DNA of 64,000 bases from Flavobacteriaceae bacterium (GCA_034523115.1 JAXHKS010000024.1:7846-71845), one strand, 5' to 3'; positions 52,876 to 63,649 are shown, counted from the first letter of the stretch. Notes: a model not told the origin generated them from the letters alone. Made by a program: numbers and translations.

Positions 52876-53779
52876 ATGGCAGCAAATAAGTGGATAAACG
52901 CGGCACGCCTGCGAACGCTTCCTTTATCGGTTTCGGGTATTATTGCCGGTAGTTTTCTCGCCTGGTCTCAGGGATCTTTTAATATATTGATCTTTATATT
53001 CGCCATACTTACTACCATAGGTTTTCAGGTTCTTTCCAATTTTGCCAATGATTATGGCGATGGCGTAAAAGGTACAGACAATAAGGAGCGTATTGGTCCG
53101 GCACGGACTATCCAGAGTGGCCTGATCAGTCCTTCAGAGATGAGAAGGGCGATAAGGATCACAATTTTTTTAACGCTGCTGGTTGCTGTTATACTGATCT
53201 ATTTGTCTTTTTCCAAAGGTGAATTTCTTTTTGCCTTGCTGTTTTTTGTTTTTGGGAATTGCAAGTATTGCTGCGAGCCATTAAATATACCGTAGGATCA
53301 AATGCCTATGGCTATGTTGGTTTTGGCGATCTTTTTGTCTTTCTTTTCTTCGGATTGTTAAGCGTTTGCGGCAGTTATTTTTTGTACACAAAATCCCTTC
53401 CACTTGCTGTGTTTCTGCCGGCATTTTCCATTGGGTTTTTAAGCGCAGGAGTGCTTAACCTGAACAATATGCGCGATGTTGTTTCTGATTACCAGAACCA
53501 GTAAAAAAACCCTGGTTGTCAAGATAGGATCTGAATTTGCCAGGTATTATCATATCTATCTGCTGGTGTCGGCATTCTCTGTTTGCCCTTATATACAATA
53601 CAATTAATTTTCATTCATGGTATCAATTCATTTTTTTGGTGGTACTGGTACCCATATATTTGCACGGTAAATTTGTCTGGTTCAATAAAGATCCAAAGGA
53701 CCTCGACCCCAGAATTAAAAAGCTGGCATTAAGTACCTTCGCTTTTGCTTTTTTATTTCGCTTGGGACAAATTTTATAA
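52876..53779 (+). CDS. menA: 1,4-dihydroxy-2-naphthoate octaprenyltransferase, three fragments
   Basis: ARLRTLPLS, SNFANDYGDGVKGTD, IKYTVG..AYGY.GFGD, LNLNNMRD. Confidence 0.93.
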
Positions 53780-53781
53780 AA

Positions 53782-53797
53782 AATGATAAAAATCATT
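53782..53797. promoter_or_regulatory. Palindromic operator AATGAT-AAAA-ATCATT (Crp/Fnr-like TGAT-N4-ATCA), copy 1
   Basis: Perfect 6-4-6 inverted repeat 46 nt upstream of ATG 53844; identical copy at 56720. Confidence 0.65.
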
Positions 53798-53843
53798 TGT
53801 AATAAAAGATAAAAGTGTCTTCTTTGTAGAAGAAATCTAATTG

Positions 53844-54226
53844 ATGAAAAAGTTAGTCATTGTACATCTTTTTTTAAATCTTTATTTGCTGGCCCTGGTA
53901 GGGCCGGTGCTGCCGATTCTTGACTACCTCATTAACTATGACTATATCGCCAATGAGTTATGCATTAACAGAGACAAACCCATATTGGCCTGTAATGGCA
54001 AGTGTTACCTCGAAGGTCAGTTTAACAAGCAACAAAATTCCCAGGAGGAAAATCCTGTTCCACTTGTGCCCAAAGTAGATTTTGAAAGGTTTTTTACCTG
54101 GTAGTCAAATCATTTGAATACAAATTACTCGACTTTACAAATCAAAAGACTTCGATCATTTCAATATGTAAACTTCAGGGAGCATTAGTGCCCTTCTCCA
54201 TTTTCAAACCTCCCATTTACCATTAA
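53844..54226 (+). CDS. Cys-rich small protein with N-terminal hydrophobic segment and C-terminal IFKPP; candidate metal-responsive leader ORF
   Basis: YIANELCINRDKPILACNGKCYL; one missing base near 54097 joins it to an open frame ending ...VPFSIFKPPIYH* (TAA 54224-54226). Confidence 0.75.
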
Positions 54227-54296
54227 AATTCATAGTTAAAAATCTTGGGAAAGATTTAAATCAAAAAATTATAAATTTTAGTTTATACCAATAATC

Positions 54297-56576
54297 ATGA
54301 AGATAAATGATTTATTGGTTCTTGTCGTGCTGCTTTGCAGTTTGGCAGGAACCAGCCAAACAATTCTTTTTAAAGGAAGGTTATGGACGAGACCGGCCAG
54401 CCCGTTGAAAAGGCAATTATCAATTTAAAAGGCAGTTACCAAAGTTTTACTACGGATCAAAACGGAGAATACAGTTTTTCAGCAGATTCGGAAAGCATAG
54501 CCACCGTAAGCTGTTTGAATTACCAACCAAGAACGGTTGATTTGGTGCAAGACATGGAAATCGTCCTAAAGGAAGGCTCCATTGAACTTGACAATATTGT
54601 GGTTAAGGCCGATCCCTTGTATGATGTTCCGCATTCAAGCATTATTATTGATGAGGTTAAGTCAACAACCCAGCCAAGATCTGTCAGTGATTTGTTTAAA
54701 GACATTCCGGGTTTTGGAATCCAAAAACGGGGGGCTTATGTTGCAGAACCCATTTCAGGGCGTTTAGGTACGAGCAGCTGAATATTCAATATGACGGGGG
54801 AATGAGGATCACCAACGCCTGCCCAAATAGAATGGACCCATCACCACCCTATTATACCCGAAGAAATTGGGCAGATAAGAGGTCATCAAAGGACCTTTTT
54901 CAGTAAGGTTTCGCCAAAATTTTGGCGGGGTGATCAATTTGGTTTCTAAATCTGTAAATGACAAGGAAATGGGACTTTCCGGCACCATTGAGTGGCTGGA
55001 TGAAACCACAACAGCGGTTTTACCGGCAGAGGCTCATTGGTTCAAAGAGGAGAATCTTTCGACCTTGAACTCAACGGTTCCTACCGGAATTACGGCGATT
55101 ATGAAGACGGCAACGGAACAGAAGTTCCCTCCTCGTTCACCACAACTGACTATTCGGTCAAATTGGGCTATAACCCGTCAGAAAATCAGCGAATGCGGCT
55201 GACATGGAGACAATCCTTTTGCCGGAGACGTGGATCATGCAGGTTTGCCAATGAATTCACCTTATGACGACAGTTATATGGCAGGAATCGATTATAGATC
55301 ACAAAACCTACAGAGCTAATTACGGACATTACAGTAAAAGGTTTTTATTCTTATGTGGATCATCTCATGACCAATGAGAACAGGCCCAGTTTTGCAGTTT
55401 CCGGTTCTTCTTCCAATGTTTTTGCCACAAATTATGGCGGAAAGGCCGAAGTAGCTTTTAAACCTGCAGATAAAGTTTTGATATACACAGGTTTAGATGG
55501 TAACTTTACCTCAAGGGAAGGGGATAGGATCAGAACCATTAAAATGGCCAACGGACAACCATTGCCGAACCCGGTTGTGAAGGTAGATAAAATTTGGCAG
55601 GACGCAGTGCTTAACGATGTGGGAAAGATATTTTTTGCGGAAGGAAAACTGCTTTGTCCGAAACTTCCACCCTCACCATGGGCTTGAGATCGGATTTTGT
55701 AAATGCAGCCATCAACGATCCGGAAGCCGATTTTGAGACCCTTTATGGCGGAGAAATAGAGGATCAGTCAGAAGTGAATCTGGGGGGGAATATTTCGTAC
55801 CAGTATAACAAGCCATATTTTTAGATGGAATGCCTCTTTGGGCAGGAAAATCGAACTGCCGACATGATTGAGCGATACATCAACCATTTTAATGTGGGTA
55901 TAGACCCTTATGAGTATGTTGGAAATCCTTACTGTCAGACCCAGAGGTAAATTATCAGATGGAACTGTGGGGCCAATTCAAAAATGAAAATTATCAGTTT
56001 GGAGCATCATTTTTTTACTCCTATCTGGAAGATTTTATCTCAGCCATAGTAGATCCTGACCTACCCAGGAAATTCATGCCCACTATGGAGCCCAAATTCG
56101 CCAAAAGATTTATCAATCTGGATAAAGCCTATCAAACCGGTTTTGAGGCATTTTTCAATTATTATTTAACTGCCCAACTTATTCTGGAAACAGATATTTC
56201 CTATACCTATGGGCAAAATGAAGATTTTGATGAACCCTTACCGCAGGTAACTCCTTTAACAGGCCATATCGGAATTAAGTATGACCAAAAGAAATACTGG
56301 GTCAACTTGAAATCCAGACTTGTAGACAGCCAGGACCGCGTGGCGGTATCATTTGGTGAAGAAGAAACACCGGGTTTCGCAACATTTGATATCAGTGCCG
56401 GATTTGTGCCATTTAAAGGACTTTCCATCGGTGCTGCGATTTTAAATATCTTTGATAAAGCGTATTATGAACACCTCAATTTTGCCTATAACGGTGCTGA
56501 CCTTCTCAGTGGAAGGATCTACGAGCCGGGGCGGAATTTTACCTTTTACGCGACCTATAATTTTCAGTATTTATGA
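54297..56576 (+). CDS. OprC-like TonB-dependent copper receptor, heavily frameshifted by read errors
   Basis: Plug motif NACPNRMDP (54814-54840), barrel DHLM (55358-55369), IKGPFSVR, TPGF, C-terminal YEPGRNF. Confidence 0.85.
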
Positions 56577-56719: not shown

Positions 56720-56850
56720 AATGATAAAAATCATTTGTAATAAAGATAAAATTGTCTTCTAGTAGAATTTTAATGGAAAGTTAGCCTCACACCCTTTTTT
56801 AATCTATCCGGGCGGGGGCCGGGCCGGGCGATTACCTCTCACTAGACTAT
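56720..56850 (+). repeat. Second copy of the operator/promoter and leader-ORF start found at 53782-53950
   Basis: AATGATAAAAATCATTTGTAATAAA(A)GATAAAA.TGTCTTCT near-identical; colinear islands AAAGTTAG, CTTTTTTAA, GGGCCGG, GACTATATCGC follow. Confidence 0.8.
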
Positions 56851-57164
56851 ATCGCGGCGGGAGGGACGAAACGATGGCCGAGGAGGTTATCGGAGGGGGA
56901 GCAAGCGGCAGAACCCCGATAGCCGACCCCTAAATTAGAAAAATTTCATTTCCGTTTTCTTAATTTCAAATCTGCTGTATATACGCTATAGAAATAAATA
57001 GCAAAAATAGTCTTTAATTAAGGCGTATAGGTCTTTCTATTTCTTTCCGGCGCCTCCGGGTTATAATTTCATTAATTCTTTGTAAGTTTAAATCCCGCTC
57101 GTATTCCCCTGCCTAAGGTATGGGTATGCTATATAAATTATAATCAATTAAATAATAACCATTT

Positions 57165-57560
57165 ATGAAAAAATAAATTAATTTTTTTATTATACTTTCT
57201 GCTTTTATTGCCTCTTGCTCCGTGGGGGCGGCGGGAGGCCGGACTATTAAAGGCGGATTTCACGATACCCTGGAGCGGAGGCGGGAAAAATTTATGCGGG
57301 TATAAGACATAACCTTCGCGAAAGATAATTTAACGGTAAATATGTTGAAAACACCATTTCCGAAGCCGGCATAGATCAACGGAACCATTCTTGTCCGAAA
57401 TATAGTTAATGCATGCGAGCAAATACAACCTAAGGGTATATAGTATTTGGATGTAAAGATAGAAAGGAGGGGATAGGACATTGAATTACAGTGAAAGATG
57501 ACTATTATGGTCAAGATGATATCGGGCCTATCGCCAAACAAAATGTATGAGTTTTGTGGC
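57165..57560 (+). CDS. Probable small lipoprotein in a very low-quality stretch; boundaries approximate
   Basis: ATGAAA start after an A-rich leader; nearby frame reads ..FFIILSAFIASCS (lipobox); remainder garbled. Confidence 0.35.
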
Positions 57561-57718
57561 TAGGAAAGAGGGGCTGAGCCGCCTTTCTTCCCCCCCTTTT
57601 CTTTCTCTTTTTTTTTTTTTCCATTGAAATCGTAGGCATAATTGCTTGTTAAATTTACTCCTTCTCTCCTTTTTTTTCCCTTCCCTCTTCTTTCTCCCCC
57701 TTCTAAAATAAGATACTT

Positions 57719-58458
<740 letters not shown>

Positions 58459-62073: not shown

Positions 62074-63649
62074 ATGCGTACAGATTTTGAAATAAAAGAA
62101 CCCCGATTAATAGATGTTAAAGAACTAATCCGAAAATACAATTATGAGGATGAAATAAGTGCGTCTATAGAAACCGAGAACCTGCTGCCTGGCGGGAATC
62201 CTGCACCGGTTGCACGCATGCTATCCGCAGCATTCAGGTTCAAGTAAAAGTTCTGAGTTTTTATTCAAGGAGAAAGACCATTATTCAGGTATAGAGGTTT
62301 CAGAGAAATCCTGTCCTGTTTGAAAAGAATGGCATTGATATAGGCTACCAGAAAGAGCGCGAATTTTTTCTGGAAGTGTACCGTTTTCTGGCAACCAAAC
62401 ACAGCCTGAATGCCATTGACTGGAATAACTTTGAAAAAGATTTCATGTTTCAGCTCATTTTTCCGCAGCCGGACATGATCAGCCGGGAAGAAGTAGCCAT
62501 TTATGAAGCTGCGAGAACAAAAGAAGAAAGGGCCAAAGTGGTGGAAGCCTACCAAGAAGACCAATCCGCACGACGGCCATCAAAAATTAAACAAACCCTG
62601 GTTTCTTGATGATGAGGGGCATCTGGAAGATCTTCAGGAAGCCAGCACAAATACCCCTCCGGTTCAACTGGTCTTTGACAAGACAACCCAGAACTGTTTC
62701 GCATTTTGCACCTATTGTTTTAGGCATGCACAGGTGCGGGGAGATGAGGATATGTTCGTGCAGCGGGATATAGACCAACTGCATGCCTATTTAAGAATAC
62801 ACCAGGAAATAACGGATATCCTGATCACAGGTGGTGATGCGGGTTATATCACCTACAGCAGGCTAAAACAATACGTCCTTCCATTTATTGAAGATGATAC
62901 CCTGCTTCAGATCAAAACCCTCAGGCTGGTTTAAGGGCGCTTACCTTTCAACCTGAACTGATGAAAGACGCTTACAAACCCATTCTGGAATCGTCTTCAG
63001 AAACTTATAGAAAACGGCCATCCAGGTGCTGTGGATGGCTCATTTTTACTCGCCGAAAGAGCTGTTAAATCCTGAGTACCATCGCTGCCATTACGCAGGT
63101 TGAAAAAATACGGACTTACATAAAAAGCCAAAGTCCGATTATGAACCACATCAGTTTGTTCTCTGATAAAAACGGAAAGGTAGATATAGACCGATCTGCC
63201 CAAAACTGGATAGACCTTGGAAACATCCTGGCCATGCTGGGCATAGGATTCCATTCGATGTATTGTGCCAGACCTACCGGTGAGCACCATTATTTCACCG
63301 CACCCTGGCGGATATCAACAAAGTCTTTCAGCAAGGTGTTTAAAACCCTGGCATCCATCAACCGTCCGTCAAGGTATATCACCATGACCTCTTCGGCAGG
63401 CAAGGTTTCCATGCTGGGCACGGCCATAGTAAATGGCTGAAAAGTTTTCGCCTAAAATTCAATGAAGCGAGGAATATGGACTGGATGGATAAGGTTTACT
63501 TAGCCAAATACGATGAAAAGGAAAAACCATAGACAAACTAAAACCCTACGATACTGAACAAATATTCTCATGAAGAAGAACTTACTATGATAGAAGATTA
63601 GCTGGCAGATGCTTTGGAAAAAGAGATTGTTAAATCTGAGCACGCATGA
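62074..63649 (+). CDS. KamA-family radical-SAM/PLP aminomutase-like protein, many indels
   Basis: FQLIFPQPDM, SQHKYP, CFAFCTYCFR (CxxxCxxC, 62695-62718), DILITGGD, WMAHF, MTSSAGKV. Confidence 0.85.

Follow-up and report, generated by a model that had tools for sequence, protein, structure and literature searches.

A small leader ORF with three invariant cysteines and a Pro-Pro end (positions 53844..54226, + strand) precedes a gene for an OprC-like TonB-dependent receptor (54297..56576, +) in the window, the 64,000-nucleotide stretch of a Flavobacteriaceae bacterium that was analyzed (GCA_034523115.1 JAXHKS010000024.1:7846-71845). The leader belongs to a family of the phylum Bacteroidota that stands in first position before copper-type genes, and published data for one relative, F. 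psychrophilum, reveal regulation between leader and cargo. The explanation that we favor, at slightly better than an even chance, is that the leader is a cis-acting, copper-sensing arrest peptide, similar to CruR of Bordetella pertussis, through which copper would switch off importer expression via Rho. Stalling, copper as the ligand, the periplasmic location and Rho are the parts of this explanation that we infer.

The first-pass annotation had described an ORF of ~127 aa after repair of one indel near 54097. In the window sequence, the frame opened by the ATG at 53844 ends at a TAG at 54102-54104, and the terminal SIFKPP (54197-54214) lies in a frame other than that of the leader start, followed by IYH and a TAA at 54224-54226. 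The best homolog among the matches listed, P0001, is a continuous protein of 127 aa with 88% identity over the 5' part and the end SIFKPPIYH. It is encoded by a genome of the same genus (G413), which is syntenic with the window and 87% identical to it. The two leaders differ by one base at ~54097, as the repair had supposed. Both the leader and the 755-aa receptor are intact in G413. Compared with it, the window has 17 indel events within the receptor, and 6 more in the adjoining upstream gene (which we take to be menA-like) and its 3' flank. Since G413 is intact and the window carries many indels relative to it, the leader break is most likely a consensus error. That leader and receptor are true pseudogenes in the window strain is very improbable: both are frameshifted in the assembly and no public contig spans the leader break, but this assembly (G000) is error-rich and 82% complete, most and indeed nearly all window genes are fragmented, housekeeping neighbours included, and the syntenic relative is intact.

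The leader can be divided into four parts. A hydrophobic helix, either signal anchor or signal peptide, occupies residues ~4-30 (53853..53933) by AlphaFold and hydropathy. It is followed by the cysteine cluster C40-x9-C50-x-G-x-C54 (LCINRDKPILACNGKC; 53958..54005), a predicted metal-binding sensor that is invariant in 147/147 aligned sequences, and by a linker (54106..54196) that keeps its length without sequence conservation and whose C-rich, G-poor mRNA is a possible Rho-loading stretch. The candidate arrest site, SIFKPP-IYH-stop, lies at 54197..54226, with the PP codons at 54209-54214. The hydrophobic N-terminus and the C-x9-C-x3-C cluster noted in the first pass were found again in the window leader and in its homologs, and the coordinates agree with its SIFKPP three residues before the stop and its distance of 70 nt to the receptor, whose ATG is at 54297. 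The A/T-rich intergenic stretch (54227..54296) contains neither a promoter nor a terminator match.

The receptor, frameshifted in the assembly, has an N-terminal CarboxypepD_reg-like domain. Its G413 ortholog matches OprC of P. aeruginosa (PDB 6FOK) at E 7e-43; ACPNRMD and DHLM of the ortholog line up with ACPNRMD and DHIM of OprC. CxxxM-HxM is the reported copper site of OprC (PMC8610252), and the alignment confirms the window positions of both predicted halves, CxxxM in the plug (ACPNRM, 54817..54834) and HxM in the barrel (DHLM, 55358..55369), as had been proposed. The best family for the G413 receptor is TIGR01778, at 272.9 bits and under the cut-off of 472.45, which places it outside that family. 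Thus, in OprC/NosA of Pseudomonas and in the window receptor the two motifs align residue for residue, and the reported low-oxygen expression and copper repression of OprC/NosA agree with the control predicted here; the window receptor differs in its extra N-terminal domain, in scoring under the family cut-off and in that its copper transport is a prediction. We consider it an OprC-like, predicted copper importer.

A homolog search with the leader returned 206 matches. Among the 120 listed, C-x9-C-x3-C was present in 120/120 and PP in the last 15 residues in 119/120. The family profile comprises 5,822 clusters at 50% identity and was found in 110/401 genomes of Bacteroidota; all 140 matches outside the window genome were taken as the locus set. 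CxGxC occurs in 138 of these 140, preceded by a cysteine at x9 in 110 and at x6, x7 or x10 in 28. PP lies within the last 16 residues in 137/140 members, as compared with 2/388 control ORFs from the same loci. Among the 137, FHPP ends 57 and FRPP 18, and RAPP/RGPP none; in the clade nearest to the window leader the motif is LLRPP/LFRPP, among the matches listed. The terminal IFxPP predicted for homologs was therefore too narrow, since most have F[HR]PP, although the terminal PP itself is kept. The distance from the last cysteine to PP is 61-74 residues in 136/136 scorable members, mostly 65-70. In an alignment of 147 sequences with 20% mean column identity, only C40, C50, G52, C54, P123 and P124 are invariant, and the prediction that an HMM would find the Cys triad retained held for all of them.

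At the N-terminus, 134/138 members reach a 17-residue hydropathy of at least 1.6. In the AlphaFold model one long helix covers residues 2-30 with pLDDT above 90, short helices surround the cysteines and the C-terminal half is unstructured; residues 1-68, which are well conserved, have pLDDT mostly above 75. On these grounds, with export judged by hydropathy, the N-terminus is predicted to be a membrane-targeting or export segment. No Pfam or NCBIfam family matched the leader family, Foldseek found no PDB match for the leader model, and VIA-align gave just generic helices, all below Z 5. DUF6769 (two weak matches among 142, E 0.036 and 0.0022) and DUF6660 (an atlas neighbour at 0.89) were set aside as leads only. 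One subfamily (L058, L059, L060, L070, L072, L074 and similar loci) has C-x10-CDGFC, a His/Asp-rich linker and xSPPP ends, and precedes genes for SCO, PCuAC and a barrel that carries GHAP...GDHxH as an N-terminal motif.

The nearest analog is CruR (Bp2923), a DUF2946/PF11162 protein encoded as the leader of cruR-crtA(bfrG)-bp2921, in which the Cys motif and RAPP are reported to be spaced by a fixed ~45 residues (PMC9426467) and for which arrest in vitro is described (PMC12992588). Both leaders are the first gene of a copper-import operon, with an export signal, a Cys motif, constant spacing, a PP only a few residues from the stop and a C>G stretch inside the ORF, and their cargo types overlap (TonB receptor, PepSY_TM, SCO, PCuAC, MbnP/MbnH). 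In contrast, PF11162 matched 0/142 family members at E 0.05 or better, CxxC of CruR is replaced by C-x9-CxGxC and RAPP by F[HRK]PP/LRPP, the spacing is 61-74 rather than ~45 residues, and the family, in Bacteroidota, often uses a leaderless GTG start. Of the features that define DUF2946 leaders, the family shares the first position in a copper-related operon with an N-terminal export segment (by hydropathy), and it lacks the HMM match, CxxC and a RAPP ~45 residues on. By analogy the family would work like CruR, yet it falls outside DUF2946, and the first-pass view of an analogous, sequence-distinct leader stands. In the phylum sample, a PF11162 search of low sensitivity (2/14 control genomes detected) gave weak matches in 5/201 genomes, three of which also have family members, on other contigs. 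An hhalign comparison of the family with one weak PF11162-like stretch, a single sequence and hence of little weight, gave no match.

CutF of Rhodobacter capsulatus and the CutF-like proteins are similar in being under 150 aa, with a targeting segment at the N-terminus, CxxxC, PP among the last 15 residues and a neighbour on the same strand, and the window leader fits the rules on length, PP and neighbour (127 aa, PP at 123-124, a gap of 70 nt with a neighbour limit of 1,000 nt). CutF differs in its output, since with copper it opens a Shine-Dalgarno hairpin and so switches on a detoxifying oxidase, whereas the cargo here consists of uptake and assembly genes, with no efflux pump or multicopper oxidase among the 59 representatives that were scanned for families after the downstream proteins had been clustered and no enrichment of cargo-start hairpins. 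Öztürk 2023 listed 5,334 CutF-like proteins in silico, in 29 clusters and 19% from Bacteroidota (PMC9973294). The earlier statement that no experimental description was known for Flavobacteria must be read beside this computational list, which may or may not include the present family. The RAPP-class arrest peptides (ApdA, ApdP and the RQH family; PMC10987492, PMC12992588) likewise combine an N-terminal localisation signal with a C-terminal PP motif upstream of a regulated gene, whereas RAPP/RGPP is found in 0/137 of our family. According to the available part of a 2025 survey, RAPP/RGPP leaders of copper genes are lacking in Bacteroidota (PMC12992588), and the available parts of PMC10987492 and PMC12914433 do not describe the leader family. 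Beyond the CruR, CutF and RAPP papers, the literature searched held no description or test of it; subscription papers and File S1 and Fig. S6 of Öztürk may bear on its novelty. Control of copper uptake in Bacteroidota is little described, and if the favored explanation is true, the family would fill the RAPP/RGPP gap, though with a sensor and an arrest motif of another type.

The promoter lies before the leader. TAnnTTTG was present within 70 nt of the start in 68/126 well-defined leaders and 5/126 control stretches, and before the cargo start in 2/118. In the window, an imperfect Bacteroidota -7 element (CTTCTTTG; 53819..53826, +) predicts a transcription start at ~53831 and a 5' UTR of ~13 nt. 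With a relaxed -7 pattern, the start codon follows the box by 4-5 nt in 32/77 leaders, and it is GTG in 22 of these 32; 4-5 nt after the -7 box is the reported position of +1 (PMC6847099), and ~5.5% of F. psychrophilum mRNAs are reported to be leaderless (PMC9723704). Typically, then, the leader is predicted to head the transcript, often as a leaderless message. A GTG exactly at the transcription start is common in the family (L200:4515-4886 and 31 other loci), and THC0290_1633 is annotated 11 codons short. Because the GTG sits at the transcription start, such members are probably mis-annotated with shortened N-termini.

The first cargo genes of the 140 loci are MbnP (33), YtkA-like lipoproteins (24), MetA-pathway-type barrels (23), OprC-like receptors (23), other TonB receptors (21) and others (16). 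A copper hallmark (MbnP, SCO, PCuAC, OprC-like or COX1) occurs within the next four ORFs in 105/140 loci, and 35/140 are without one in the stretch fetched. These neighbours are the set described for CruR (PMC9426467). CxxxMD is kept in 43/44 long OprC-like receptors. Part of the cargo has no obvious link to copper (siderophore-like receptors with PepSY, DJ-1, AraC and superoxide dismutase). Homologs had been expected directly upstream of metal transporters; they do stand first before copper-type genes, but most first cargo genes are not receptors. The median leader-cargo gap is 103 nt over the 140 loci. In 8/140 matches, merged as second leaders, tandem units each have their own leader; clusters with a leader before each unit are L040, L046, L050, L088, L096, L097, L119 and L144. 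If the favored explanation is true, the family marks MbnP/MbnH-like operons, YtkA-like lipoproteins, small barrels and PepSY-linked receptors as a copper-uptake regulon. The small outer-membrane barrels (L034, L055, L061, L134, L200:7137-8099) often carry CDxCGC right after the signal peptide and belong to no family beyond a weak Phenol_MetA_deg match.

Published expression data for F. psychrophilum (PMC9723704 and rows of its supplementary files 3, 4 and 6) allowed leader and cargo to be compared. The species has two family members. Leader 1 (THC0290_1633; profile match E 4e-27) has a mapped start site 33 nt upstream of the annotated start, where it coincides with the G of a GTG codon in the same frame; reading from there gives a leaderless ORF of 123 aa ending FHPPSIIL. 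In the rows available, this site is the only 5' end listed for leader 1 and the MbnP gene, so that one promoter serves both. Leader 2 (THC0290_0922) precedes the genes for a TonB receptor and a membrane protein, and no start site of its own appears in the available part of the map. The strain sequenced at L200 is not that of the published data; gene lengths and gaps match.

Co-expression cluster B76 consists of 9 features, all downstream of the two leaders, at loci 0.8 Mb apart, and includes neither leader. That it holds exactly the cargo behind the two leaders is a new observation on the published data. The leader mRNA is steadily expressed. Between the two loci, the ratio of cargo to leader is correlated (r 0.78; 32 conditions that are not independent). 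In serum, the cargo falls by 3.45 and 3.65 log2 (~11-fold), and the leaders by 0.55 and 1.0 (2-fold or less); blood, mucus and plasma act in the same manner. Fresh water and NaCl are among the repressing conditions as well. Since B76 holds the cargo without the leaders and serum lowers the cargo far more than the leaders, control likely acts after transcription initiation, between leader and cargo, in this one relative. To that extent the data bear out the first-pass claim that the leader controls the gene downstream. At locus 2, the cargo lies up to 4.1 log2 below the leader in repressing conditions. At locus 1, each of the 64 arrays gives a weaker signal for the leader than for its cargo, and the segment between the two follows the cargo closely (r 0.98). 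A leader below its cargo is not what plain termination would give; probe effects or 5' turnover may account for it. Arrays labelled hydrogen peroxide and low oxygen are mid-range for the cargo. Iron limitation was rejected as the inducing signal, as an iron chelator slightly lowered both cargo sets. Copper is named in none of the 32 condition labels, and for mucus, plasma, chelator and low oxygen the matching controls were deduced from the published fold changes. A term search of the F. johnsoniae ribosome-profiling supplement gave no match.

RNA structure between leader and cargo was compared for the first 110 of 137 leaders and 91 controls. Strong structure (z below -2) around the leader stop occurs in 30% of the leaders and 43% of the controls, and hairpins at the cargo start are rarer than in controls (19% vs 42%). 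Neither an intrinsic terminator nor a conserved start-site hairpin is enriched, and both were rejected as candidates. The window intergenic region forms a modest hairpin over the receptor start (z -1.56). The linker mRNA has C>G in 122/136 leaders, as compared with 112/302 controls, and amino-acid composition accounts for 0.16 of the 0.21 skew, about three quarters. The skew fits a Rho-loading site as in cruR and is weak when taken alone.

In the favored explanation, the nascent chain would enter the membrane by its N-terminal helix and the ribosome would stall at the terminal FKPP. When copper is scarce, the stall would let transcription run on into the OprC-like importer. Copper bound by the three cysteines would cause the exported N-terminal part to fold and to pull the chain, releasing the stall; the release would expose the C-rich linker mRNA to Rho, and the transcript would end before the receptor. 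Sensing is probably periplasmic, because with 61-74 residues between them and the PP end the cysteines would already have cleared the ribosome tunnel and the translocon. Analogy with CruR does not imply this, since CruR is reported to sense copper in the cytoplasm with a dispensable signal peptide (PMC9426467); periplasmic sensing is reported for CutF (bioRxiv 10.1101/2025.02.05.636593). The explanation is supported by the invariant Cys, Gly and PP, the free linker of fixed length, the promoter before the leader and only rarely before the cargo, the copper hallmarks at three quarters of the loci (105/140), the tandem leaders, the composition of B76, the paucity of cargo-start hairpins and the C>G linker. 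Against it we count the loci without a hallmark, leader 1 below its cargo, leader 2 without a start site of its own, the mostly compositional origin of the C>G skew, the window hairpin and an end in HPP or KPP rather than RAPP. HPP alone is a weak pause motif.

The locus 1 arrays, which look as if the 5' part had been trimmed and the remainder made more stable, would suit the same copper-sensing arrest leader with a different output, mRNA stability or translation initiation, where the stalled ribosome would shield or open the message and its release would lead to decay. Some intergenic hairpins, at the frequency and window z value given above, and the precedent of CutF, which acts by unmasking a start site (PMC9973294), also speak for such an output. 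We regard it as unlikely, as termination would produce just such a drop of the cargo below the leader as is seen at locus 2, cargo starts are less often structured than the controls, and Bacteroidota are reported to lack Shine-Dalgarno sequences (PMC6847099). A cis-acting arrest leader might instead respond to the periplasmic thiol-disulfide state, another soft metal or export capacity. The repressing conditions differ in many ways and the cargo includes the genes without an obvious link to copper, but copper hallmarks mark most loci, three invariant cysteines would fit Cu(I) binding better than disulfide pairing, the hydrogen-peroxide-labelled and low-oxygen arrays are mid-range and the iron chelator gave no induction, which makes a signal other than copper unlikely.

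Quite improbable is an ordinary membrane-anchored periplasmic copper chaperone acting in trans, with an incidental PP end and an operon controlled otherwise. The conserved, confidently folded residues 1-68 and the steady leader mRNA would agree with a chaperone, but it leaves unexplained why PP is invariant and set at a constant distance beyond a linker of free sequence, why each unit has a separate copy before it and why the leader is absent from the co-expression cluster of its own operon.

Extending the favored copper-sensing, Rho-dependent leader to the phylum, we propose tentatively, at somewhat less than an even chance, that Bacteroidota independently evolved a phylum-wide copper regulon without a transcription factor, in which thousands of often leaderless, GTG-started periplasmic sensors with three cysteines, a non-RAPP F[H/R/K]PP arrest and Rho termination would read copper across the inner membrane and, acting in parallel, co-regulate scattered operons.

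The window promoter also carries the palindrome ATGAT-N4-ATCAT (53783..53796, +), a CRP/FNR-like box centred at ~-41.5 from the predicted transcription start. In 16/68 promoter-bearing leaders there is a TGA-N6-TCA box whose end is 29-31 nt upstream of the -7 element. Across the window genome, 30 nt is the commonest spacing from box to -7 element (16 sites, against 2-11 for other spacings); 26 sites lie at 30-31 nt, and the scan covered the 17 whose ORFs reach at least 100 aa. The boxed genes are ccoN, hemG, two ferredoxin oxidoreductases (PFOR) and genes for HydG-like, PhsA-like and Crp/Fnr proteins, plus unrelated or unassigned genes; boxed loci were seen on contigs C10, C9, C13, C14 and C19 (L208, L211, L212, L213, L215, L217, L218). 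The box at ~41.5 nt is a probable mark of a low-oxygen regulon in this genome under a putative CRP/FNR-like regulator, and in the window promoter it probably adds low-oxygen activation, by a putative activator, together with the cbb3 oxidase (ccoN). The F. psychrophilum leader loci were not induced by low oxygen. Therefore, the FNR-like layer would be lineage-specific.

Three other stretches of the window are unusual. Within 56721-57560 the promoter and the start of the leader recur in noisy form (62 nt, 89% like 53770-53830), and after this copy comes a fragment that resembles a YtkA-like lipoprotein (E 1e-5 to L181); this is absent from G413, and other genomes of the genus have leader-receptor or leader-YtkA-receptor at the site. 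The stretch is either another unit headed by a leader, with its consensus in poor state, or a chimera of strains. At 57570-57810 there are long low-complexity runs of T and of purines, also absent from G413, which are probably failed consensus. Gene fragments at 62376-63440 resemble a radical-SAM KamA-like protein.
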